Source of the DNA: Bacteroidales bacterium
GTDB lineage: Bacteria > Bacteroidota > Bacteroidia > Bacteroidales > UBA3824
Length of the DNA: 64,000 nt
Direction of reading: 5' to 3'
Assembly: GCA_016293845.1 (NCBI GenBank)
Contig: JAEDDH010000004.1
Span: forward strand, 142,084-206,083
Part shown: positions 754-63,859 of the stretch, one piece after another
Layout of the letters: the number at the start of each line of letters is the position of its first letter
How positions within the stretch are numbered: the stretch's first letter is position 1
The notes under the pieces: generated by a model
Databases searched by the model: none
Told to the model about the DNA's origin: nothing
The model's input: the letters and a program-made list of their open reading frames with translations, nothing else
Position numbers and translations under genes: made by a program

Positions 754-2059
<1,306 letters not shown>

Positions 2060-2234: not shown

Positions 2235-3512
2235 TTACTTATCCAAGGGGAAGCCAGCCATTAGTTCGTTTACTTGGGCTTTTACTTTGGCGATAACGTC
2301 ATCGTTGGTGATGTTTTTGATAACGGTGTCGATAAAGTCTACAACTTGCATAATTTCAGTCTCTTTGAGTCCGCGTGTGGTGATGGCTGCTGTGCCAAGA
2401 CGTACACCTGAGGTCTGGAATGCCGAACGTGTATCCCACGGAACCATATTCTTGTTGGCTGTGATGTCGGCTTTTTCGAGTGCCAACTGAACTTCCTTAC
2501 CAGTGATGTCGGGGAAGTTTTTGCGGAGGTCAACAAGCATAGAGTGGTTGTCGGTACCGTCGGAAAGAATCTTGTAACCACGGTTCATAAGTTCGTTTGC
2601 CATTACGCGAGCATTGGTCTGAACCTGTTTAGCGTACTCTTTGAATTCGGGTGTGAGAGCCTCGCCGAATGCAACAGCCTTGGCAGCGATAACGTGCTCT
2701 AAAGGTCCGCCCTGAACGCCGGGGAATACTGCAGAATCCAACAGCGACGATATTTTGCGGATAACGCCTTTGGTAGTGGTTTTGCCCCACGGATTGTCGA
2801 AATCTTTGCCGAGGAGGATGATGCCGCCACGAGGTCCGCGGAGGGTTTTATGTGTGGTAGATGTTACGATGTGAGCGTATTTCAACGGGTTTTTGAGGAT
2901 GCCGGCAGCGATAAGACCTGCGGGGTGAGCCATATCGATCATCATCAATGCTCCCACCTTGTCGGCAATAGCACGCATACGTTCGTAGTCCCAATCGCGA
3001 GAGTAAGCCGAAGCACCACCGATGATAAGTTTCGGTTTGGTTTCGAGGGCAACTTTCTCCATTTGGTCGTAGTCGATAAGACCGGTTTCTTTGTTGATAT
3101 TGTACGAAACGTGGTTGTAGAGCAAACCAGAAGAGTTAACGGGCGAACCGTGGCTGAGGTGACCGCCGTGATCGAGGTCTAAGCCCATAAATGTGTCGCC
3201 GGGTTTCAAAACGGTCAAGAGCACAGCCATATTAGCCTGCGCACCTGAGTGGGGTTGAACGTTTACCCATTCGGCGTCGTAAAGTTTTTTAAGACGTTCG
3301 ATAGCGAGAGTCTCCATTTCGTCAACGAAGTGACAGCCGCCGTAATAGCGGTGTCCAGGATATCCCTCGGCGTATTTGTTGGTTAGTACCGAACCCATTG
3401 CACGCATTACGTTGGCGCTTACAAAGTTTTCGGAAGCAATAAGCTCGATGCCGTTTTTCTGACGGCCGTATTCTTTCTCGATAATGTCGAATACTGCGTT
3501 GTCTTGTGCCAT
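2235..3512 (-). CDS. glyA: Serine hydroxymethyltransferase
   Basis: Full-length 425-aa ORF. It has the N-terminal ELIASENF motif and the PLP-lysine motif [14 protein letters not shown], with SHMT-typical sequence throughout. Confidence 0.97.
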
Positions 3513-49432: not shown

Positions 49433-51577
49433 TCACTCCTTCACCAATCCCAATCCTATCCTATTTCGATCCACATCTACTGTAAGCACTTTTACTCTTA
49501 CGGGTTGGTTGATTTTGAGGACGTCGGAGGGGTTGACGGGGTTGCGACGTGTGCCGCCAAGTTGAGATACGTGGATGAGTCCGCTGACGTGAACACCAAG
49601 GTCTACAAACGCTCCAAAATTAGTAACGTTGGTAACTATTCCGTTGAGTTCCATTCCCTCTTTTAGGTCGGTGATTTTTTCTACACTTTGTTCAAACTCA
49701 GGCACTTTAAACTCGCCACGAGGGTCGCGACCGGGCTTTTCCAACTCGGTGAGGATGTCGGTGAGAGTGGGCAGACCGGTTTTGTCGTCGACATATTTTT
49801 TGATGTCGATTTGTTGGCGCATATCCTTGTTGGTGATGAGGTCTTTGACACCGCAGCCAAGGTCTTTTGCCATTTTGTTAACAATGTAATATTTTTCGGG
49901 ATGGACGGCGGAGTTGTCTAACGGATTGTCAGCACCTTCGATACGAAGAAATCCTGCGCATTGTTCAAAAGCCTTGTCGCCCATTCGGGGAACCTTTTTT
50001 AGTTCGGTGCGCGAGCCAAATGGTCCATTTTCTTTGCGGTAGTTGACAATGTTTTGCGCCAAAGCAGGCCCCAGACCCGAAACGTAGGTCAAAAGGTGCT
50101 TGGAGGCAGTGTTGACATTTACGCCCACTTGGTTTACGCAACTGATTACCACATCGTCGAGACTCTCTTTAAGTTTGGTTTGATTTACATCGTGCTGATA
50201 CTGACCCACTCCGATGGATTTTGGGTCTATTTTTACGAGTTCGGCAAGCGGGTCTAACAAGCGGCGGCCAATCGAAACTGCACCACGCACAGTAACATCG
50301 TACTCAGGAAACTCCTCGCGGGCAACCTCCGAGGCAGAATAAATCGACGCTCCCGATTCCGAAACAATATACACCTGAATATCACGATCGAAACGCACCT
50401 TTTTGATAAAGCGTTCGGTTTCGCGACTTGCTGTGCCATTGCCGATGGCAATGCAGTCGATTTTGTATTGTTCCACAAGCGTTGTTACCTTGCTCATTGC
50501 GGCAAAAGCCTCTTTCATACCCGAATGTGGATAAATGGCCTCGTTGTGCAAAAGATTACCTTGCTCGTCGAGACAAACAAGTTTGCAGCCGGTGCGGAAA
50601 CCAGGGTCGAGAGCGAGAATACGTTTTTTACCCAACGGACTTGCTAACAATAGGTTGCGAAGATTTTCGGTAAACACTTTGATAGCCTCCTCGTCTGCCT
50701 TTTCTTTGGCAATGTTGGCAAATTCGGTTTCCATAGAGGGTTGAAGAAGACGGTTGTAACAGTCTTCGGCGGCAATCTTAATTTGCTCTGCGCCATTACC
50801 GCGACCTTTAACATATTGACGTTCAAGCATATTAATAGCCTTATCGTCGTCGGGTTTGATAGTAATCTTTAAAAAGCCTTCGTTTTCGCCACGCATCAAT
50901 GCAAGCAAACGGTGCGAGGGAATGCGAGAAAGCGGTTCTGAATAGTCGAAATAATCTTTGAATTTTTGCGCCTCCTCATCCTTACCTTTCACTAACTTAC
51001 TGAAAATTATTGCCTCGCGGTTGTAAAGATTTCGCATACGATTGCGAGTGTCAACATTTTCGTTGATATGTTCGGCAATAATGTCGCGAGCGCCTTGGAG
51101 AGCATCGTCGATAGATTCCACCTTGTCGTTGAGAAATTGTGCGGCAATTTTTTCGGGGTCGGCGTTCTGTTGAAGAAGAATTGTGTCGGCAAGCGGTTCG
51201 AGACCTTTTTCATTAGCCATCGAAGCGCGGGTCTTTTTCTTCTGTTTATACGGCAGATATAGGTCTTCAAGGTCGGTCATAGTAATCACCTCATCGATTT
51301 TTGCTTTAAGTTCGTCGGTGAGTTTGCCCTGACTTTCAATGGATTCGAAGATCGAAGCCTTACGTTTTTCGAGTTCCTCGTATTTTTTAATTTCGTCCTT
51401 GATTTGCGCCACCTGCACCTCGTTGAGCGTACCGGTTTGTTCTTTGCGGTAACGGCTTATAAATGGCACAGTTGCGCCCTGCGAAAATAAGAAAGCGGTG
51501 TTTTTTACCTGAATTTCGCGGATGCCGAGTTTTTCTGCTATGAGTTTTATGTATTTGTCTTGCATAATATTAATCAA
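49433..51577 (-). CDS. tex: Tex-like transcription accessory protein (YqgF/HhH/S1 domains)
   Basis: 714 aa. N-terminal ATVPFISRYRKEQTG, a central YqgF-like region, and the C-terminal S1 domain GMELNGIVTNVTNFGAFVDLGVHVSGLIHVSQL. Confidence 0.95.
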   Translation of the reverse strand: MINIMQDKYIKLIAEKLGIREIQVKNTAFLFSQGATVPFISRYRKEQTGTLNEVQVAQIKDEIKKYEELEKRKASIFESIESQGKLTDELKAKIDEVITMTDLEDLYLPYKQKKKTRASMANEKGLEPLADTILLQQNADPEKIAAQFLNDKVESIDDALQGARDIIAEHINENVDTRNRMRNLYNREAIIFSKLVKGKDEEAQKFKDYFDYSEPLSRIPSHRLLALMRGENEGFLKITIKPDDDKAINMLERQYVKGRGNGAEQIKIAAEDCYNRLLQPSMETEFANIAKEKADEEAIKVFTENLRNLLLASPLGKKRILALDPGFRTGCKLVCLDEQGNLLHNEAIYPHSGMKEAFAAMSKVTTLVEQYKIDCIAIGNGTASRETERFIKKVRFDRDIQVYIVSESGASIYSASEVAREEFPEYDVTVRGAVSIGRRLLDPLAELVKIDPKSIGVGQYQHDVNQTKLKESLDDVVISCVNQVGVNVNTASKHLLTYVSGLGPALAQNIVNYRKENGPFGSRTELKKVPRMGDKAFEQCAGFLRIEGADNPLDNSAVHPEKYYIVNKMAKDLGCGVKDLITNKDMRQQIDIKKYVDDKTGLPTLTDILTELEKPGRDPRGEFKVPEFEQSVEKITDLKEGMELNGIVTNVTNFGAFVDLGVHVSGLIHVSQLGGTRRNPVNPSDVLKINQPVRVKVLTVDVDRNRIGLGLVKE

Positions 51578-51684: not shown

Positions 51685-53274
51685 ATGGGAATTTACGTAA
51701 ATCCGGGCAACGAACTTATGCAAGACGCTCTCAATTCAATGATTTATGTTGATAAATCATTAATAGTAAGAGAGTTGAATAAGATGATTGGTACACGTCA
51801 AAAGTATGTCTGCGTGTCGCGTCCGAGGCGTTTCGGCAAATCGATGGCTAAGGCATTACTTATGGCTTACTATTCCCGAGGCTGTAAGTCGCACCGTCAA
51901 TTCAAGAACTTGAAAATAGCCCAGGAACCGAGTTATAGAAAATATCTCAACAAATTGAATGTCATTGCGATAGATTGCGTTGACTTTTCATCGAACCTGT
52001 TTAAAACAAGCAAGGATAGTTTTGTAAACAGGATGACTGAAAAGATTAAGAGGGAATTTGTTGAAGAATTTTCTGATGTTGATTTCTCTGATTGTCAAAG
52101 TATTGCTGATTGCATCAAAATCGTTTATAAAAAAACAGGTGTAAAGTTTGTAATACTCATTGATGAATACGATTTGCCGATACGCATCGAACAGCCTGAA
52201 TCTCTTTTTAAAGAGTATCTTAATTTGTTGCTTTCATTGTTCAAAAGCGAGGCTACAAGTCAGGCGACGGCTCTTGCCTACATTACTGGTATATTGCCGA
52301 TTGTTCGCGATAGGGTAGAGAGCAAACTTAACAATTTTAGGGAATATACATTTCTCGAACCGGCTAATTTTGCCGAGTTTACAGGGTTTACAGAACAAGA
52401 GGTGCAGGGACTTTGCGACAAATACAATGTCAATTATCAGGAATGTCTCAATTGGTACGACGGTTACGATGTAGAAGGCATTAACATTTGCAATCCTCAC
52501 GCAATAGTCGAGAGTATTACATATAAAAAGTTAAAGCCATTTTGGTCTAATACAGGTACTTACGAAACCATTGCGCCATACATAAAAGGCAACTATCAAG
52601 GCATCAAAGACGACCTGATTAAAATGCTTTCAGGCGGCAGTGTTCCGGTTAACATAACTTCATTTGCCAACACGCTTTCCGACATAACTTCTAAGGACAA
52701 ATTGTTTACGTACCTGATGCACACGGGTTTTCTCGCCTACAATCTCGATGAAAAAACCTGTCGTATGCCAAACCTCGAAACTCAGGACATTTGGGGCAAC
52801 GCTTTGGAAAATACCGAGTCGTTCAAAGTTTTGGGCGAGTTCATCAAAAACTCGGAACGTCTTCTCAAAGCCACACTTGCAAAAGATGGCGAAACTGTTG
52901 CAAATGCCTTGGAAGTGCTTCACGGCGAGGTAACGTCGCATTTGAGTTACAACCACGAACAATCGTTGCAGTCGGCGATTGACATTGCGTATATGCACGC
53001 AAAGACATATTATCGGATTTTCAACGAAGTTCCGACGGGCAACGGCGTTGCAGACGTGGTTTTGGTGCCGCTGTATCCCAATTGGCCCGCAATAATCATC
53101 GAACTAAAACGCAACTCGTCCACCGAGTCCGCCCTCAACCAAATCAGCGAAAAGAAATATTCTGCGCGGCTCAACGATTATAACGGACGCCTACTTTTCG
53201 TCGGAATTAACTACGATGAAAAGAAAAAGCACACTTGCGAGATAGTGGAGGTGGAAAAGAATGGTGGCTGTTAG
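51685..53274 (+). CDS. AAA-ATPase_like + PD-(D/E)XK (DUF1703-type) protein
   Basis: IYVDKSLIVRELNK...VCVSRPRRFGKSMA is the hallmark N-terminus of the predicted AAA-ATPase family common in Bacteroides. The C-terminal ADVVLVP...IIIELKRN has a D...ExK nuclease-like motif. Confidence 0.8.
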   Translation: MGIYVNPGNELMQDALNSMIYVDKSLIVRELNKMIGTRQKYVCVSRPRRFGKSMAKALLMAYYSRGCKSHRQFKNLKIAQEPSYRKYLNKLNVIAIDCVDFSSNLFKTSKDSFVNRMTEKIKREFVEEFSDVDFSDCQSIADCIKIVYKKTGVKFVILIDEYDLPIRIEQPESLFKEYLNLLLSLFKSEATSQATALAYITGILPIVRDRVESKLNNFREYTFLEPANFAEFTGFTEQEVQGLCDKYNVNYQECLNWYDGYDVEGINICNPHAIVESITYKKLKPFWSNTGTYETIAPYIKGNYQGIKDDLIKMLSGGSVPVNITSFANTLSDITSKDKLFTYLMHTGFLAYNLDEKTCRMPNLETQDIWGNALENTESFKVLGEFIKNSERLLKATLAKDGETVANALEVLHGEVTSHLSYNHEQSLQSAIDIAYMHAKTYYRIFNEVPTGNGVADVVLVPLYPNWPAIIIELKRNSSTESALNQISEKKYSARLNDYNGRLLFVGINYDEKKKHTCEIVEVEKNGGC

Positions 53275-53347
53275 TAATAAGTAGATTGATGTTTGAGTCA
53301 AAATGTTGACGAAACAATACTTTTGGCAACCTTTTGGTTTGTTACAA

Positions 53348-54679
53348 TCATATTTTTAATAAATTAGAATTGCTTTGTTTGAATATGTCGTTTATTTGTG
53401 CATTACTAAATCCAGTCAATGATAAAACACAGCAAATTAGTAAAATTCTTAATTTGTTAGTAAGGTGGTATAGTTCATAACCCACTAAAACAATTTCACT
53501 ACTCTTTGGTGCATAAAAATGGGAGTAATAGTCCCTTGAATTAACGCAGGCTCGAATACATATATTAGCATTTTGGATTATTTCAATATTTGAAAATTCA
53601 AACAGTAGTTCGCCTATTTTATCTTTTAACGCTACTCTATTCTTGGCGTTCAAATTATTATTACGCTTATATGTATCTTCTCTAAATCGGCTCCAAAAGC
53701 CATCAAGTGCTTGAATAACAATTAAAAAATCAACGCTACTAAATGAACGTTTTCGTTCCAAACTATCAATTAAGTGTGTTCTAATTGGAGTAATTTCTTT
53801 TGGAGCGTTGTACCATTCTTTTAGAATCTGGGAATAGTAATTTTGTATAGTAGAGTAACTGTACAAAAAGTCAATAGAATTTATTTCTTTTGCCTTTATC
53901 TCTTTGAAATTTCTGCGAGATTGGACTATGTAAATTGGTTTATAGCGTTTTACATTATCTACATCTTGATATAGATTACTGTCGAACACTTTAATACAAG
54001 AACTTTTTACAATATTTGATGTTGCAACAGAAAGAAATTGTTCAAACATTAAAATATCTGATAACAATTCGCTAATTGAACAAGGCGAATTTTTCGAAAT
54101 ATCAATGGATACAAATTGCTTTATGTTGATTTCTTTTTGGCTTTTAGAGTACGAAATTTCTTGTAAAAGAGAAATGCTTGTTGTATCATTTATTGCAGTC
54201 TTGTTCAAAAGACATTTTTCTTTGCCGTTGGTTTGAAATGAAATATTAGTATTTTCATTTCCTGTTGAAAAAGATATTGCATTGTTAGGGCACCAATCGG
54301 ACAATTCAGGTATGATAGCATTAGCCCAATAGTTACACTTTTCGTCTAATCCCTTAATATGCTTACCAATAATCATATATTTGCAGATGTATTCTACAAT
54401 AGCAAAACCCGCTGTCCAATTGAAATTTGCTTTTTTAAAGACCTGTAATAATGTTATATCTTTTGAGTCAGAAGTGCGACCATATATAACAATGTCGTTT
54501 GTCTTTTTATCAAAAAACTGTTCCAATGGATGTCCAAAACTTCCGATGAGTTTTAACACAATTTTATCTTCTGGATAATATGTAAGTATTCCAGCAACAA
54601 GATTATCAGGCTGTTCTGGCAAGTACCAATAACCTTCGAATACTAATTGAGAACTCAAATTCAAAGCATCCATAATCAA
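53348..54679 (-). CDS. ApeA-like protein: ApeA_NTD1-like N-terminus and C-terminal HEPN (R-x4-H) motif
   Basis: The N-terminus FEGYWYLPEQPDNLVAGILTYYPEDKIVLKLIGSFG fits the ApeA N-terminal pattern (G.WWLP.....V.G.L......I.LEL.G.F). The C-terminal part has NSRDYYSH (R-x4-H). The gene is conspicuously AT-rich compared with its flanks. Family assignment is from memory. Confidence 0.5.
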   Translation of the reverse strand: MIMDALNLSSQLVFEGYWYLPEQPDNLVAGILTYYPEDKIVLKLIGSFGHPLEQFFDKKTNDIVIYGRTSDSKDITLLQVFKKANFNWTAGFAIVEYICKYMIIGKHIKGLDEKCNYWANAIIPELSDWCPNNAISFSTGNENTNISFQTNGKEKCLLNKTAINDTTSISLLQEISYSKSQKEINIKQFVSIDISKNSPCSISELLSDILMFEQFLSVATSNIVKSSCIKVFDSNLYQDVDNVKRYKPIYIVQSRRNFKEIKAKEINSIDFLYSYSTIQNYYSQILKEWYNAPKEITPIRTHLIDSLERKRSFSSVDFLIVIQALDGFWSRFREDTYKRNNNLNAKNRVALKDKIGELLFEFSNIEIIQNANICIRACVNSRDYYSHFYAPKSSEIVLVGYELYHLTNKLRILLICCVLSLTGFSNAQINDIFKQSNSNLLKI

Positions 54680-54923
54680 ATATTAAATTTTAATAAAAAA
54701 CACAAAGGTACAAATAATACGAGAGACATGCAAGTATTAATGATAATAATCCTGCATGGTCTCATATATAAAGATTACAAATTGTCATCAAATTTCATCC
54801 AATGTTCCGTTTATCTCGATACCTTGAATTTGGAATGCACTTATCCTTCTTGTGAAAATGCTGAAAACGGAATCAGAATAAACAAGCATAGGATTCATAT
54901 TAATTTCATTATATTTGTAAGTT

Positions 54924-55511
54924 TTAGAAGTTATCTCTAATATTATTTTCTTGATTAGATGCTGTTTTGACATTTTCATAAAGGTCTTTCAGACCCTCAG
55001 AGAATCGACTTTTTGCTGATTTCTTTTTGATACCCTTCAACTCTCTATCCAAATATCCGACCTCATGTTCTATTCGCAGTTTAATAACATTACCGTTGAT
55101 TATCTGTTGGATTTGGTCTTCGGTTATGTTGTAACTTGGATAAACATAGTAATTTGTTCCATATTTTGTTACCTTATACTCATAGTCGGCAGGTCCTATT
55201 TCTTTTGCGTTTTCAAGTTCGATTATTGTACCATCATCAAATTTAAGCAATAACTTACGACCGATGCCAAATTGAAGTTTCGTTTCATTTAGACACAATT
55301 CTAACTGCCAAAGATATAGATTGTTCTTGGTGATTGCGTATCCAACTGAAAAAGATGCGGCAGAAGACCATTCTGTGTAAAGATTTTTCCAATACGAGAG
55401 CACAATTCGTGTGCTGTCTTCAACAGAATACTTATCAATCCTAACATTTTGGGAGTAACCAAAAATTGGAAAGAGTAGTACACAAAAAACAATTGTCAGT
55501 ATTTTTTTCAT
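54924..55511 (-). CDS. Exported hypothetical protein (~195 aa)
   Basis: Signal peptide MKKILTIVFCVLLFPIFGYSQ from ATG 55511. The ORF finder extends it to TTG 55541. I recognise no domain. Confidence 0.55.
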   Translation of the reverse strand: MKKILTIVFCVLLFPIFGYSQNVRIDKYSVEDSTRIVLSYWKNLYTEWSSAASFSVGYAITKNNLYLWQLELCLNETKLQFGIGRKLLLKFDDGTIIELENAKEIGPADYEYKVTKYGTNYYVYPSYNITEDQIQQIINGNVIKLRIEHEVGYLDRELKGIKKKSAKSRFSEGLKDLYENVKTASNQENNIRDNF

Positions 55512-55585
55512 TTTATTTCTATTTTTCCGCGAACTTCCCAAACACGGTGTTTATTTTTCTAATTAACTACAAGACCTATATAAAC

Positions 55586-55870
55586 AAAAAACGTGGGATT
55601 TTTACAGTCGCTCGTTCCACTTGTTGAGGCTCTTGCATTGCCCATCCTGTCAGAAACGAGCAACACTCAAAGCCCACGCATTATGTATATACAACAAACC
55701 CCAAGAGTTTGAGATGATACATATTCGAGGGCATTACCGTGTTGCTTTGTACTTGACAGGATTTGGAATTTGCAAGATTTCAACAAGTCAAAAACAAAGC
55801 GTAAGTAACGCCTTTATTTTATAAGTCTGTTCTCATCCTACTTCTGCCCGAAGGCTTTTTGGATTTTAAA
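55586..55870 (-). ncRNA. Unclassified ~285-nt structured RNA or leader, copy A
   Basis: On the minus strand the order is a -7 box, ~285 nt with no conserved ORF, then a T6 run. It aligns end to end with 62251..62534, with compensatory substitutions in several helices (see findings). Confidence 0.55.
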
Positions 55871-55875
55871 CACAG

Positions 55876-55883
55876 CAAATATA
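55876..55883 (-). promoter_or_regulatory. -7 box TATATTTG driving RNA copy A
   Basis: The reverse complement of CAAATATA at 55876-55883 is an exact TAnnTTTG match. It sits at the same distance from the conserved RNA blocks as the box of copy B. Confidence 0.5.
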
Positions 55884-55927
55884 CATCATTTTTCAACACA
55901 ACGTATTTCATTTTCTCTTTTTTTATC

Positions 55928-55935
55928 TATATTTG
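55928..55935 (+). promoter_or_regulatory. Bacteroidota -7 promoter box (TATATTTG)
   Basis: Lies 20 nt upstream of ATG 55956. Confidence 0.4.
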
Positions 55936-55955
55936 CAAAAAATCTTTTAGAAAGT

Positions 55956-57524
55956 ATGAAAGAATTCAACACCACAGGCATTTGCTACCCCGATGAGCAT
56001 TATATGGTGGACATCAGCACCCGACTCGCCGACATAGAACGGAGAGTTGCCAAAGGAGAGTACATCACCATCAACCGCGGTCGTCAGTATGGAAAAACTA
56101 CTACTTTGTTTCATCTGGCCAAAAAGTTGATGGAGAAATACGTGGTGTTTTCTATTAGTTTTGAAGATTACAACCAAAAGGATTTCAATTCAATAGAATC
56201 TATTGCGTTTACTTTGTTGGAAACATTGCAGACGGCTATTGACGACTTGCCTGAACTTAATGTTGATCAATCTGTCAAAGACTTGATTGTAGACACATTA
56301 ACCGCCAATCAAGAGAAAAGGGAAATTATAAAAAGCGTTTTTGCAAAACTTTTAACCGATATCTGCCGAAATTCTTCAAAACCTATCGTCCTGATAATCG
56401 ACGAAGTGGACAATGCAAGCAACTACGAATCGTTTATCGAATTGCTAAGGATGTTGCGAAGCAAGTATCTTAAACGTGCCACAGTTCCAACATTCCAATC
56501 GGTAATTCTCGCTGGTGTGTACGACATTAAGAATCTCAAACTCAAAGTTCGCCCCGACAGCGACCACCAATACAATTCGCCGTGGAATATCGCCGTGGCG
56601 TTCACTTCCGATATGTCGCTACTATCTGAGGGTATCAACCAAATGCTGCAAGAATACGAAAACGACCACCACACAGGGATGGACATTTCGGAAATAACTC
56701 AATTAATCACCGACTACACTTCGGGCTATCCATTTTTCGTATCAAGGGTATGCCAACTTATTGACGAACAGAATCTTTCGTGGAGCAAAGAGGGTGTTAT
56801 CAATGCAGTAAAACTATTGCTAAGAGAAAAAAACACATTCTTCGATGATTTGCTGAAAAAATTAGACGACTATGTAGAAATCAACAAATTACTGAAAGAT
56901 ATTTTGCTTTATGGCAATTCGGTTTCGTTCAATATCGACAACAAGTTTCTCAACCTTGCGGCTATGTTCAATTATATAAAGGAAGAAAACGGTAAAGTTA
57001 AGATTTTTAACCGAATAATTGAAACGCGCCTTTACAACAAGTTTATGAGCGATGAGGAAATTACAAATACCTTATACAAACAGGGAGATATCGACCGCAG
57101 CCAATTTATTGAAGGCAAATCTCTCAAAATGGACAAAATTCTCGAAAAATTCGCAGTTCATTTCAACGATATTTACGGAAACAACGAACTGACTTTCAAG
57201 GAGGAAGAAGGACGGCGTTTCTTTATGCTCTACATCCGTCCGATAATCAACGGCGTGGGCAACTATTACATCGAGGCACAAACCCGCGACCGCTCTCGCA
57301 CCGATATGATTATCGACTATTACGGTCAACAATTCATCATTGAGATGAAGATATGGCGCGGCGACTCTTACAACGAACGCGGCGAAAAGCAACTATTTGA
57401 ATACCTCGACTTTTACCACACCAACAAGGGCTATCTTCTGAGTTTCTGTTTCAACAAAAAATCCAAACCCAAGGCTAAGGCTATTACGCTGGGAGATAAG
57501 GAGATTGTTGAAGTGGTGGTGTAA
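55956..57524 (+). CDS. P-loop ATPase + C-terminal PD-(D/E)XK-like nuclease domain protein
   Basis: Walker A is INRGRQYGKTTTL and Walker B is LIIDEVDN. The C-terminal TDMIIDYYGQQFIIEMKIWRG has a D...ExK motif. The architecture is analogous to 51685..53274, but the sequence is clearly different. Confidence 0.7.
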   Translation: MKEFNTTGICYPDEHYMVDISTRLADIERRVAKGEYITINRGRQYGKTTTLFHLAKKLMEKYVVFSISFEDYNQKDFNSIESIAFTLLETLQTAIDDLPELNVDQSVKDLIVDTLTANQEKREIIKSVFAKLLTDICRNSSKPIVLIIDEVDNASNYESFIELLRMLRSKYLKRATVPTFQSVILAGVYDIKNLKLKVRPDSDHQYNSPWNIAVAFTSDMSLLSEGINQMLQEYENDHHTGMDISEITQLITDYTSGYPFFVSRVCQLIDEQNLSWSKEGVINAVKLLLREKNTFFDDLLKKLDDYVEINKLLKDILLYGNSVSFNIDNKFLNLAAMFNYIKEENGKVKIFNRIIETRLYNKFMSDEEITNTLYKQGDIDRSQFIEGKSLKMDKILEKFAVHFNDIYGNNELTFKEEEGRRFFMLYIRPIINGVGNYYIEAQTRDRSRTDMIIDYYGQQFIIEMKIWRGDSYNERGEKQLFEYLDFYHTNKGYLLSFCFNKKSKPKAKAITLGDKEIVEVVV

Positions 57525-58447: not shown

Positions 58448-60007
58448 GTGATATACAAGGTATTAATAGCAGACGATGACACGCTCAGCCGCACTATTAT
58501 GAAATCGGTGCTGTCTAACGACGACACCACGGTTTACTCTGTGGACGAGTGTTCAAACGGCTTGGAGGCTTGGGCTAAGATACAGTCCGAACCGCCCGAT
58601 CTTGTTTTGCTCGATTGGCAGATGCCCGGAATGTCTGGTCTGGAAGTCACCAAGTTAATCAAAAAACGCTTTAAAACCACTTCTGTAATCATTGTTACTG
58701 GCAAAATCGACAGCAGCGACCTAAGCCTTGCCTTAAACTCTGGCGCAAACGACTATATCAAAAAGCCGATCGACAAGGTGGAGTTTCTTGCCCGAACCAA
58801 GTCGGCGGTAATGCTGCACGATAGTCTCGAAGAACTCGAAATCAAAAACCGTAAAATCCTCAACCAAAACGAGGACCTCAACAAATTGTCGCTAATTGTA
58901 AGACAGACAGCCAATTCGGTAATACTTTTCTCGCCCCACGGCGAAATAGAATGGGTAAACGAAGGATTCCAACACATGTACGGATACACCTTAGACGAGT
59001 TTATCAACAAACGCCGCGGCACCAACATTCTGAAACTCAGCTACAACGAGGACATCAACAAAAAATTCAAAGAACTATTTAGCAAGCAGCAGTCGGTAAA
59101 CTATATCACTCAATGCCGTGTAAAGTACGGCGCAACAAAATGGATTCAAACCACCCTCACACCCATCTTCGACGGTCGCAGAATAGAAAAATTCATTGCC
59201 ATCGAAACCGACATTTCGCAGCAAAAACACGTGGAGTTGGAACTTGAACGGTCGCGAACCGAAATTCTCAAAAAAAACGAAATCATCGAGAAAGAACGCT
59301 CCAAAACCGACAACCTCTTGCTCAACATTCTGCCCGTGTATGTGGTGTCGCAGTTAAAAGACGACGGATTCTCCTCGCCGCGAAACTACAAGATGGCAAC
59401 CATTATGTTCACCGATTTTAAGGGATTTACCAAATCGTGCGAAAACCTCACGTCAGACCAAATTGTGGCGGCACTGCATTTTTTCTTCTCCAAGTTCGAC
59501 GACATCATCTCGTGCCATTACATCGAAAAAATCAAGACCATTGGCGACTCGTATATGTGCGTAGGCGGCATTCCCCTTAGAAACAAAAGTAACCCTATCG
59601 ACGTGATACTCGCGGGGTTAGAAATCAACAACTTTATGGCAAACTACAAGCAGCGTTTTCCCGATATGAACCTTCCCGATTGGCAGTTGCGCATTGGCAT
59701 ACACACCGGAGCACTTATGGCGGGGGTTGTGGGCAAAATCAAATTTGCCTACGACACTTGGGGCGATGCCGTAAACGTGGCTAAACGTATGGAAAGTGCC
59801 GACGAGGTAGGCTGCGTAAACATCTCTGCCGAAACTTACAAATACGTAAAAGATTATTTTGTGTGCCGCTATCGTGGCTCGGTCGACATCAAAAACCACA
59901 AAAACATCGATATGTACTTTGTTGACCGCCTTTTGCCAAAATATTCGCTCGACGAAGAAGGAATTTTTCCTAACGACACCTTTATTGATATACTAAATTC
60001 GATTTAG
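58448..60007 (+). CDS. Response regulator with PAS domain and class III adenylate/guanylate cyclase output
   Basis: REC is VLIADDD...LVLLDWQMPGMSG...DYIKKP. A coiled coil and a PAS-like region follow (SVILFSPHGEIEWVNEGFQHMYGY). The cyclase catalytic motifs are ATIMFTDFKGFT, IKTIGDSYM and YDTWGDAVNVAKRMES. The start codon is GTG. Confidence 0.85.
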   Translation: MIYKVLIADDDTLSRTIMKSVLSNDDTTVYSVDECSNGLEAWAKIQSEPPDLVLLDWQMPGMSGLEVTKLIKKRFKTTSVIIVTGKIDSSDLSLALNSGANDYIKKPIDKVEFLARTKSAVMLHDSLEELEIKNRKILNQNEDLNKLSLIVRQTANSVILFSPHGEIEWVNEGFQHMYGYTLDEFINKRRGTNILKLSYNEDINKKFKELFSKQQSVNYITQCRVKYGATKWIQTTLTPIFDGRRIEKFIAIETDISQQKHVELELERSRTEILKKNEIIEKERSKTDNLLLNILPVYVVSQLKDDGFSSPRNYKMATIMFTDFKGFTKSCENLTSDQIVAALHFFFSKFDDIISCHYIEKIKTIGDSYMCVGGIPLRNKSNPIDVILAGLEINNFMANYKQRFPDMNLPDWQLRIGIHTGALMAGVVGKIKFAYDTWGDAVNVAKRMESADEVGCVNISAETYKYVKDYFVCRYRGSVDIKNHKNIDMYFVDRLLPKYSLDEEGIFPNDTFIDILNSI

Positions 60008-61403: not shown

Positions 61404-61530
61404 ACATTTCGCGGAAAACGGGAAAAACACACTAAAACATTTCGCGGATTTCCGCAAAAATATTAAAATAAAAGTGCGGATTTCCGCAAAAATGCTAAAA
61501 TAAATTTGCGTATTTCTGTAAAATGTTTAT
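61404..61530. repeat. Four tandem degenerate ~32-33-bp repeats, each with a GCGGAnnTCCGC-type palindrome
   Basis: Cores lie at 61411 (GCGGAAAACGGG), 61444 (GCGGATTTCCGC), 61476 (GCGGATTTCCGC) and 61508 (GCGTATTTCTGT). Each is followed by AAAAAT..TAAAATAAA-like sequence. The spacing is 33, 32 and 32 bp. Confidence 0.55.
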
Positions 61531-62237: not shown

Positions 62238-62245
62238 TATATTTG
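62238..62245 (+). promoter_or_regulatory. -7 box TATATTTG driving RNA copy B
   Basis: Exact TAnnTTTG match, at the same relative position as the box of copy A. Confidence 0.5.
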
Positions 62246-62250
62246 TGATG

Positions 62251-62534
62251 TCCTTTGTTACCGAAGTCCGCCAACGGAGTAACGGGCAGGGGGCAGACAT
62301 ATATTTAAAGGCGTTACTTACGCTTTGTACTTGACATACTGAAATTTGGTCGTTTCTTATCCTGTCAAGAGCAAGGCAGCACAGTAATGCCTGCGGGTTA
62401 TGGTATATACAGACCTGTAAGGGTCTGCGTGTACATATAAAACGTGGGCTTCGGTGTTGCTCGTCTCTGACAGGAGGGCAGACCAAAGCCTCAGTATGTG
62501 GGACGGGCGCAGCAAAATCCCACGTCTTTTTTTT
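62251..62534 (+). ncRNA. Unclassified ~285-nt structured RNA or leader, copy B
   Basis: It runs from just after the -7 box to a T8 run (62527-62534). Conserved blocks and covarying helices are shared with the minus-strand copy at 55586..55870. The overlapping 157-aa minus-strand ORF has no coding support. Confidence 0.55.
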
Positions 62535-62581
62535 GTAATTCCGAGTTTGGGAAGTTCTCCGGAGCAAAACTTGTTTGAAAA

Positions 62582-63859
62582 ATGAACATATTAAAAAAAG
62601 TGTTCTGCATTTTGCTGTTAGCCACTTTGACATTGAGTCTGAGGGCGCAGGATTCGGCTTTGGAGTCTTCAACGACCGACTGGACATTCGGCTTAGGCTT
62701 TGGCAAACGTTGCAACTTTATGAAAATCACAGAACTCGCATCAGGCATCGACGGCGACAAGGAGATGCGGGGCGGCGGACTGTTCTCGCTGTTCGCCTAC
62801 AAGGAAACGGCTGACGGCGGTAAAGCCATCAGGCCGCAGATAACATTCATAAGCCGTGGCGCAAAATACGCAAACTTAACATCCAAATCCTGGACAGAAG
62901 CATCATACTGCGTGGATGCCAAGTACATAGATTTCAGGCTGCCCCTGATAATGAACCTTGGCACATACCGCAGCGGAGGAATACAGCCATACTTCTACCT
63001 CGCGCCGATAATGGGAATGGCAAGCGGCGGAGAAATCTCTTTGACCGAAGCCAAGGAGGGCGGAAAGTCTGTTTCCGCAGACGTGTCAAAGTCTAACCTT
63101 GCCTCGTGGTATGTGGGCGCGGGCGCGGCTCTCGGTGTCAAATACAATCTCGAACTCAACGACGCCCGCTTGTATCTCGGTTTCGAGTGTATGTACGACT
63201 ACGGCATCACCAACACCTACGGCAAGAAGGAGAAAGACGGCGACATCAACGACATCGCCAACATCGTGAACTACACCGACTATTCGCTTGACGGCAAGCG
63301 CAAGTTTTCGGGACTTGAATTTCAAGTTGTGGTAGGCGTTCCGCTCACTGTGTTCAAGCGCAAAACAAAGCAGCCCACTCCGCCGCCGACAGTAGAAGAA
63401 CAGCCTGTTGTTGAGGCAGATACGGTAGCTGTGGAAGAAAAGCCTTGTTTCGACCTCGACGAGATTAATGAGATGATTGCCAACGGCGAGGATGTGCGAG
63501 GAAAGACCATCTGCGCCGTAAACAACACCATTAACTTCGATTTCGGCAGCGCGAAAATCAAGCCCGAAAGTTACCCATATCTCGACAAACTTGCCCTCAC
63601 GCTCAAAAGCACCGGCGCAAACATCAAAGTCAACGGACACACCGACAACAAAGGCACAGAGGCGTACAACCTGAAACTTTCGCGCGACCGTGCCAAATCT
63701 GTGGTAGAATATCTTGAAAAACAGGGCATTGAGCGGGATAAATTATCATCGGAAGGTTTCGGCCCTAACCGCCCCATATCCGACAACGCCACCGAGGAAG
63801 GACGCGCTATGAACCGCCGTGTAGAGTTCGAGATTCTCCGCGAAACAGATAACAATTAA
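62582..63859 (+). CDS. OmpA-family outer-membrane protein (N-terminal beta-barrel, Pro-rich linker, OmpA C-terminal domain)
   Basis: A signal peptide and an alternating-hydrophobic barrel region, then the KQPTPPPTVEEQPVVE linker. The OmpA-like domain has NFDFGSAKIKP...GHTDNKGTEAYNLKLSRDRAKSV...NRRVEFEI. Confidence 0.85.
   Translation: MNILKKVFCILLLATLTLSLRAQDSALESSTTDWTFGLGFGKRCNFMKITELASGIDGDKEMRGGGLFSLFAYKETADGGKAIRPQITFISRGAKYANLTSKSWTEASYCVDAKYIDFRLPLIMNLGTYRSGGIQPYFYLAPIMGMASGGEISLTEAKEGGKSVSADVSKSNLASWYVGAGAALGVKYNLELNDARLYLGFECMYDYGITNTYGKKEKDGDINDIANIVNYTDYSLDGKRKFSGLEFQVVVGVPLTVFKRKTKQPTPPPTVEEQPVVEADTVAVEEKPCFDLDEINEMIANGEDVRGKTICAVNNTINFDFGSAKIKPESYPYLDKLALTLKSTGANIKVNGHTDNKGTEAYNLKLSRDRAKSVVEYLEKQGIERDKLSSEGFGPNRPISDNATEEGRAMNRRVEFEILRETDNN

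Follow-up and report, generated by a model that had tools for sequence, protein, structure and literature searches.

The 64-kb window (the whole stretch of DNA analysed here, 64,000 nucleotides in length) contains a small island of defence-type genes between the genes for Tex (49433-51577) and a MiaB-like protein. The defence-type genes themselves occupy positions 51685-57524, between Tex and a response-regulator adenylate cyclase (58448-60007), and encode an AAA-ATPase with a PDDEXK_9 domain (51685-53274), a protein with ApeA NTD1 and HEPN domains (53348-54679), and a second AAA-like ATPase (55956-57524). In the midst of this island lies a noncoding unit on the minus strand (55586-55883), which we call copy A, and a second unit, copy B, lies on the plus strand at 62238-62534. 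Each is followed on its own strand by a protein-coding gene, which we refer to as the cargo. The cargo of copy A is an ORF for a 195-aa secreted protein without a Pfam match (54924-55511, minus strand), and the cargo of copy B is an ORF that a domain match assigns to the OmpA family, encoding a 425-aa protein with a signal peptide (62582-63859, plus strand). Another ORF in the window, at 2235-3512 on the minus strand, also encodes 425 aa and thereby equals the OmpA-family cargo in length. We also note a 32-nt unit (GCGGATTTCCGCAAAAATACTAAAATAAAAGT) repeated 2.5 times in tandem at 61444-61523, flanked by the MiaB-like gene and a truncated AAA_14 ORF; each repeat contains a GCGGA-TT-TCCGC hairpin resembling a minus-strand terminator.

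What do the two noncoding units consist of? Both begin with the same Bacteroidetes -7 box, TATATTTG, read from the sequence at 62239-62246 (plus strand) in copy B and at 55876-55883 (minus strand) in copy A. In copy B, transcription would start near 62252 and yield a predicted RNA of about 283 nt (62252-62534), in which the fold, the family alignment and covariation delineate a 5' hairpin (P0), a second hairpin (P1), a long rod, a terminator hairpin and a U8 tract (T8 in the DNA, 62527-62534). In copy A, the sequence, the fold and row 2 of alignment A3 (described below) place P1 at 55815-55794, the rod and the terminator within a predicted RNA of about 289 nt (55582-55870, minus strand); its terminator strands are GUGGA (55620-55616) and UCCCAC (55598-55593), followed by U6 (55591-55586). 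A preliminary description of the locus had reported the box and T8 run of copy B, the same box and a T6 run in an inverted paralog, and a series of identical blocks. All of these were found: the copies can be aligned over their full length with about 75% identity, and the 22-nt blocks AAAGGCGTTACTTACGCTTTGT and GTGTTGCTCGTYTCTGACAGGA occur exactly twice each in the window, against none expected from shuffles. The same description had ended the unit at the T run. Conservation goes on past the terminator, however, in the form of a 13-nt block, GTTTGGGAAGTTC, which precedes the next ATG in both copies (62545-62557 and 55543-55531).

The folding z scores relative to dinucleotide shuffles are -7.7 for copy B and -5.6 for copy A, and the predicted fold of both is a long rod, unlike the local hairpins that had been proposed. 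For comparative analysis, homologs of the two copies were collected in an HMM-based alignment of 106 distinct sequences and in a MAFFT alignment, A3, of 45 sequences including both window copies. The rod of copy B (62335-62498, plus strand) was delimited by MFE folding, mutual information, pair tables and a count of covariations. Its helices, each located by fold and covariation, are 62335-62342:62491-62498, 62345-62351:62481-62487, 62360-62367:62468-62475, 62376-62382:62454-62460 and 62389-62395:62443-62449, and it is capped by an apical hairpin at 62410-62427. In the rod helices picked by mutual information the pairs are 93-100% canonical, with three to six pair types each, and the top-ranking pairs show four or more. 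When A3 was scored with a model comprising P1, the rod and the local terminator, 93.7% of the cells were paired (82.7% in shuffles), 24 pairs showed changes on both sides, and double-change cells numbered 283 as compared with 85 after shuffling. The covariation score of this model is 0.368, as compared with 0.159 for shuffled alignments (0 of 500 reaching the observed value) and at most 0.081 for slid controls. Two helices are paired in 100% of the A3 sequences, with compensation in five of six and seven of seven pairs, respectively. Since many of the pairs are G:U, the structure holds on the given strand only.

Thus the claim of a structured RNA stands, with strong covariation among homologs, while several of the helices first drawn are not those that the comparison favours. 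The 14-15-bp hairpin and the closing helix ACGTGGG/CCCACGT together show 5 double-change pairs where shuffles give 4.1 (152 of 500 shuffles), which is nothing beyond conservation. At the single variable column of the hairpin its partner does not follow, and the rod partner does; the segment CGTGGGC pairs with GCCTGCG within the rod. The pairing of TCCTGTCA with TGACAGGA, which had been listed as an alternative, is the helix 62360-62367:62468-62475. It is among the best-covarying helices and, as its covariation lies within the rod, it is the native pairing. A coding role was considered and rejected: in spite of ORFs of 45-100 codons, the conserved core is translated in all three frames among homologs, and length variation shows no 3-nt periodicity. 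The most conserved block is read in three frames across the homologs, in agreement with the original statement that no conserved ORF is present. We also rejected a tRNA or tmRNA, and a reading of the unit as a tandem-repeat RNA of the ToxI kind, the RNA having no tandem repeats.

Both copies are members of an abundant and apparently undescribed family of rod-shaped RNAs of about 300 nt from gut and rumen Bacteroidales. Scans of genomes, metagenomes and IMG/VR add at least about 145 homologs to the two window copies, from Bacteroidales of the rumen and the human gut. Used against genomes, the first block hit 27 loci, 13 of them with full-length homologs; all 13 come from metagenome-assembled genomes of rumen or gut Bacteroidales, several copies often being present in one genome. 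Copy number is at least two in this 64 kb and at least three in several metagenome-assembled genomes. A metagenome scan with a pattern from another block gave at least 120 loci, each listed one of which nhmmer confirmed as a homolog, and human-gut assemblies are the source of many among the listed loci. A family-wide pattern found 15 loci in IMG/VR; blocks specific to the window copies gave no match there, nor did blastn searches of plasmid and phage collections. The exact window proteins were found on only a few short Logan contigs. The sole long Logan contig with the exact OmpA-family protein, SRR12268563_15347, ends 60 nt before its ATG, inside the spacer that follows the RNA, as would be expected if assembly broke off at a multi-copy repeat. 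With respect to novelty, the preliminary description had been unable to match the unit to RNase P, tmRNA, SRP, 6S or a riboswitch consensus, and Rfam 15 (4227 covariance models, including 6S, abiF and the Bacteroidales and Bacteroides motifs) gives no match at gathering score anywhere in the window. At E<10, the two copy regions return only noise from unrelated families (13-18 bits, E of about 2-9). Likewise, topic and sequence-string searches of the literature, which were not exhaustive and included the first 200 of the 408 supplementary files of Fremin & Bhatt 2021, returned no description of this RNA.

Which parts of the RNA are constant? A -7 box of the form TAnnTTTG is found upstream of the RNA in 84 of 98 homologs, its end lying mostly 60-65 nt (mode 63-64) before P1. 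P1 itself (AAGGCGU-UACUU-ACGCUUU, 62308-62326 on the plus strand of copy B, defined by conservation and pair tables) has a stem that is essentially invariant across the family, being 99% paired with almost no variation, and it directly precedes the strand that we identify below as antiterminator. P1 is also found apart from the rod. The sequence AAAGGCGTTACTTACGCTTTG followed by a T-rich run occurs in rodless form at four places on the minus strands of related contigs (L005:6307-6400, L012:2669-2760, L012:1133-1200 and L021:7236-7330). Two of these cases have the same promoter and 5'-hairpin layout and lie about 25-35 nt before genes for a C5 DNA methyltransferase and a BRO/DinD-like protein; the rodless P1 of Paludibacteraceae belongs to a different repeated unit. 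The P1-bearing 5' module seems to be autonomous. Because P1 is invariant, adjoins the antiterminator strand and is present in short leaders that have no rod, it is a candidate factor-binding site, and we suggest from its sequence that it may serve as one. In addition, the P1 loop (62315-62319) is complementary to 62383-62388, an internal loop following GCAAC(AC)G (UUACU/AGUAA in copy B), and to a second region at 62505-62515, in the tail after ACGAG. Family-wide, these partners form 4.15 and 4.26 contiguous pairs, as compared with 3.83 and 3.85 in permutations, which weakly suggests that the loop docks or forms a pseudoknot there.

The 3' end of the RNA can form either of two helices. In copy B, alignment columns and U-tract counts define a terminator at 62498-62534 (plus strand), in which GUGGGA (62498-62503) pairs with UCCCAC (62518-62523) ahead of the U8 tract. 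Alternatively, the 5' strand of the terminator can pair with 62330-62334 and so extend the rod, forming an antiterminator. The segment GUGGRAC (62498-62504 in copy B) has, in other words, two mutually exclusive partners, and compensatory change with respect to both is seen at one shared column of A3, column 322. The terminator helix is 93% paired and its columns 322:344 are AU in 30 sequences and GC in 14; the antiterminator helix at the base of the rod is 92.5% paired and its columns 45:322 are UA in 31, CG in 8 and UG in 4. At column 322, the compensatory change traces to one or a few clades and hence may represent few independent events. Across the family the 3' strand of the terminator is UCCCAC or UCCAC, and 121 of 129 loci have six or more T among the 9 nt that follow the hairpin. 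The hairpin is atypical for a terminator, with 6 bp and a loop of 14-20 nt. Two exclusive covarying 3' helices together with a U-tract amount to the architecture of an attenuator.

What, then, would be attenuated? The next ORF lies on the same strand as the RNA in 122 of 130 loci, with 57-73 nt separating most ATGs from the end of the match. The Bacteroidetes -7 box, so frequent upstream of the RNA, is seen in just 3 of 129 loci over the 90 nt that follow the terminator, and neither a sigma-70-like nor a Bacteroidetes promoter was found when the cargo spacer was searched for one. Given the near absence of the box after the terminator, the cargo gene probably depends on read-through. The spacer may hold a promoter of a non-canonical or ECF type, a possibility that we count against a leader function. 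The cargos themselves are diverse: 107 complete cargo ORFs fall into 60 unrelated families, most of them without a Pfam match. Those with a match include OmpA (this window), Sel1, TerB, vWA, dockerin, UvrD-like, a protein kinase (PD-T4-6), AbiGi and a lipoprotein, as well as BrxA, mad6, TerY and HKD-Snf2/DrmD-like proteins. Among them, BrxA, AbiGi, the PD-T4-6 kinase and HKD-Snf2 are encoded by first genes of anti-phage systems. The preliminary description had credited the unit with its own promoter and terminator. A canonical -7 box and a hairpin with a U-tract are indeed present; that the unit is a free-standing gene is not obvious, in view of its fixed link to the gene downstream.

The conserved block beyond the T run belongs to a further hairpin. 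In copy B, co-variation and stem statistics define this downstream hairpin at 62540-62566 (plus strand), with the loop GUUUGGGAAGUUC (62545-62557) complementary to the terminator 3' strand AAUCCCA; in copy A, the same loop GUUUGGGAAGUUC is read from the sequence at 55531-55543 (minus strand), on a stem CCGUG/CGCGG. The downstream hairpin lies about 45 nt past the terminator and 20 to 35 nt before the cargo ATG. Its stem exists in 59 different versions, and complementarity links its loop (UGGAGYC, UGGUAGCC, UGGGAWU and others) with the 3' strand of the terminator and the adjoining nucleotides of the terminator loop. The two partners co-vary by subfamily: GGCUCCA is found with UGGAGCC, GAUUCCCA with UGGGAAUC, GGGCUUCA with UGAAGCCC, and AAUCCCA with UGGGAUU. 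The duplex between terminator and loop has a mean energy of -11.7 kcal/mol when both come from the same locus, as compared with -9.65 +/- 0.19 kcal/mol when loci are swapped (0 of 300 swaps as favourable) and -8.0 kcal/mol when the strand is shuffled. In a class-by-class matrix of duplex energies, the own-class value is the best or near-best in every row, and G:U pairs make up 104 of the 990 terminator-loop pairs (about 10%). In the window copies this contact comprises only 5-6 bp (UCCCA/UGGGA, -7.5 kcal/mol). Because the loop lies downstream of the U-tract, it can have no influence on the termination decision of its own transcript and must act either in the read-through mRNA or between a terminated RNA and an mRNA. 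In nearly all homologs the unit keeps a fixed distance from a same-strand gene and is tied to it by co-varying complementarity, which points to a leader.

The main rival of a leader is a stand-alone, abundant sRNA that is always terminated at the U-tract and acts in trans or by sequestering a protein. After its release such an RNA would refold into the full rod, free its 3' tail, and pair with the 5' UTR loop of the neighbouring gene and of paralogous units that share this loop, repressing or activating them. The promoter and U-tract terminator of the unit would serve an sRNA well, as would the co-varying complementarity between the downstream loop and the 3' region of the RNA; the rod is expected to be very stable, and the same 13-nt loop and nearly identical 3' strands in both window copies would make cross-talk possible. 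A target mRNA, however, would need a promoter of its own in a spacer of 45-75 nt, where 3 of 129 loci have the -7 box. Furthermore, action in trans does not call for a constant spacing and orientation relative to an ORF, and under constitutive termination the covariation of the antiterminator would be superfluous. We consider the sRNA a possibility to be kept in mind, though an improbable one.

The genomic neighbourhoods also bear marks of recombination. Near-identical noncoding blocks of about 600 bp (roughly positions -555 to +55, counted from the terminator) sit before different cargos, and the homology between them breaks off precisely where the downstream hairpin ends on its 3' side. Among loci with an Abi_2 gene, the noncoding block of about 600 bp takes in an abiF motif, the two promoters, the RNA itself and the hairpin downstream of it; it is about 90% identical between loci in which the Abi_2 proteins share only about 35% identity. 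One contig (L077) carries, 1.8 kb downstream of a full copy and after two cargo genes, a truncated second copy with promoter, 5' hairpin, P1 and first rod helix (1869-1990, minus strand), which is evidence of recombination within leaders. In three further loci (L047, L080 and L135) a shared foreign sequence (GAACCAGTATGTATTTTGTAAGTGTCTGTAAATCAAAAG...) starts inside the U-tract, just after ..CCACGCTT, and is followed by convergent genes, including one for an XRE-type HTH protein; it may mark the boundary of an integrative element whose target is the RNA's 3' end. The swapped cargos, the truncated copies and the foreign sequence in the U-tract indicate that the unit is also a recombination boundary in variable islands.

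Could the unit then be an element that works at the level of DNA, a portable promoter-leader cassette or a hotspot of recombination or integration, with the rod as a by-product or a recombination structure? The blocks with exchanged cargos and a sharp 3' limit, the truncated copy in L077, the insertions in the three U-tracts, the contig break before the OmpA gene, and the presence of copies on viral or provirus-like contigs would all suit such an element. The pairing, on the other hand, is strand-specific, many G:U pairs becoming A-C mismatches on the other strand; the promoter box and the U-tract keep fixed positions; the orientation to the next ORF is almost constant; and no transposase, integrase, terminal inverted repeats or, in an unsystematic look, target duplications were seen beside the unit. 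A primarily DNA-level explanation is accordingly unlikely in our judgement. Shuffling of the DNA is compatible with a role of the RNA, and mobility would not exclude RNA function. Inverton and MITE-like palindromic repeats were rejected because 122 of 130 units lie on the strand of the next ORF and because the G:U-dependent pairing holds on one strand only.

The frequent company of defence genes raises the question of whether the RNA acts like an antitoxin or binds an effector, in the manner of type III toxin-antitoxin or abiF RNAs, and so neutralises an Abi_2 neighbour or the cargo. In ToxI-ToxN, an RNA is followed by a terminator and then by the gene, a layout that our units recall. A divergent Abi_2 (AbiD/F) gene lies about 140-255 nt from the RNA promoter in 23 of 98 loci, which have at least nine different cargos, and AbiGi, the PD-T4-6 kinase and BrxA are among the cargos. 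In C. difficile, an ncRNA has been found to neutralise an AbiF protein (PMC12373285). Yet the RNA has none of the tandem repeats of ToxI, and ten Abi_2-neighbour loci scanned with Rfam have a separate abiF motif (RF03085), on the opposite strand and belonging to the Abi_2 gene (for example, L045:2287-2323, L051:1669-1705 and L160:5430-5466). In these related loci, the only nearby Rfam matches are abiF and one tRNA, neither of which overlaps the RNA; identity with the abiF motif RNA was therefore rejected. Moreover, three quarters of the loci, both window copies included, have no Abi_2 neighbour, and OmpA-family, lipoprotein, Sel1 and dockerin cargos are unlikely toxins. We regard neutralisation of a toxin as very improbable.

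How does the family compare with known regulatory RNAs? Like attenuation leaders and riboswitch platforms, it lies 5' of a same-strand gene whose spacer rarely has a -7 box, and it ends in an intrinsic terminator with a U-tract, the 5' strand of which has an exclusive alternative partner. In contrast to riboswitches and attenuators, this leader is found before some 60 unrelated gene families, not before the genes of one pathway, and no ligand pocket, aptamer, leader peptide or known binding protein was recognised in the family. Attenuators differ further in that here the antiterminator is the base of a rod of about 200 nt, with an additional co-varying contact between the terminator and the downstream hairpin. 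A second comparison is provided by phage lambda, in which the pR'-tR' region gives a 194-nt '6S' transcript that is read through under the action of Q, and by the leaders of processive antitermination systems, such as HK022 put, EAR RNA and the UpxY-dependent capsule leaders of Bacteroides. Our family has in common with these, as generally known, a constitutive promoter and a short terminated transcript before genes that need read-through, and an association with horizontally acquired or variable gene sets. It differs in that no antiterminator protein or loading site was recognised and no sequence or Rfam similarity was found, and in that its units are scattered, with many copies per genome, before single accessory genes. 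ToxI and abiF RNA (RF03085) share with it the order of ncRNA, terminator and defence-type gene and a place in defence islands, often beside Abi_2/abiF units; unlike them, our RNA has no tandem repeats and no RF03085 match, and its cargos form sixty unrelated families instead of one toxin family. Finally, 6S RNA is likewise a long imperfect rod with its own promoter and terminator. Our family, however, matches no Rfam 6S model, is multi-copy and tied to a downstream gene, and has small conserved internal loops in which the large central bubble of 6S RNA is not evident. A leader with terminator and antiterminator is thus of an already known kind. What is new is that a single leader serves many unrelated accessory and defence genes, that its antiterminator is formed by the base of a rod, and that its terminator is in co-varying contact with a hairpin downstream.

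We propose that both copies belong to a new family of attenuator-type leaders that act in cis in Bacteroidales, an assignment that we hold to be about evenly balanced against all others taken together, and that the leader probably gates expression of the accessory or anti-phage gene downstream. The proposed mechanism is as follows. First, a housekeeping-type promoter, suggested by the -7 box TAnnTTTG, would start the transcript, which, on the evidence of covariation, folds into the variable 5' hairpin, the invariant P1 and a rod of about 170-230 nt. Second, as the compensatory changes show, GUGGRAC can pair either with the U-rich strand after P1, extending the rod and leaving the downstream strand free as an antiterminator does, or with UCCCAC/UCCAC, forming before the U-tract the hairpin of an intrinsic terminator. 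Third, most transcripts would stop at the U-tract and give an RNA of about 285 nt, and the cargo gene, having no recognisable promoter, would be expressed from read-through transcripts only; both transcript ends and the read-through are deduced here from sequence. Fourth, the terminator and the downstream loop would kiss, within the read-through mRNA or between the terminated RNA and the mRNA, and so tune translation or stability of the cargo. Finally, and speculatively, a factor bound to P1 and the adjacent U-rich strand might choose between the two 3' structures.

A broader idea can be put forward only tentatively, and we think it rather doubtful as it stands: the family may constitute a modular, horizontally shuffled "universal leader", in which one RNA switch and a kissing hairpin subject newly acquired genes for defence and the cell surface to a single shared cellular signal. 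This signal could be a phage-induced perturbation of transcription or an RNA-binding factor that recognises P1. Few regulatory RNAs of Bacteroidales are understood, and to our knowledge gut and rumen Bacteroidales do not have the classical RNA-binding regulators Hfq, ProQ and CsrA. Against this background, a large covarying RNA family that is missing from Rfam 15 lies directly before about 60 unrelated families of accessory genes. The compensatory triplets and the complementarity between terminator and loop make its mechanism open to mutagenesis tests. If the terminator is conditional, it would be a portable expression switch for the engineering of Bacteroidales and, in these dominant gut bacteria, a point at which genes for defence and for surface variation are controlled in common. 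A universal leader, if it exists, would amount to a new logic by which accessory and defence islands are regulated.
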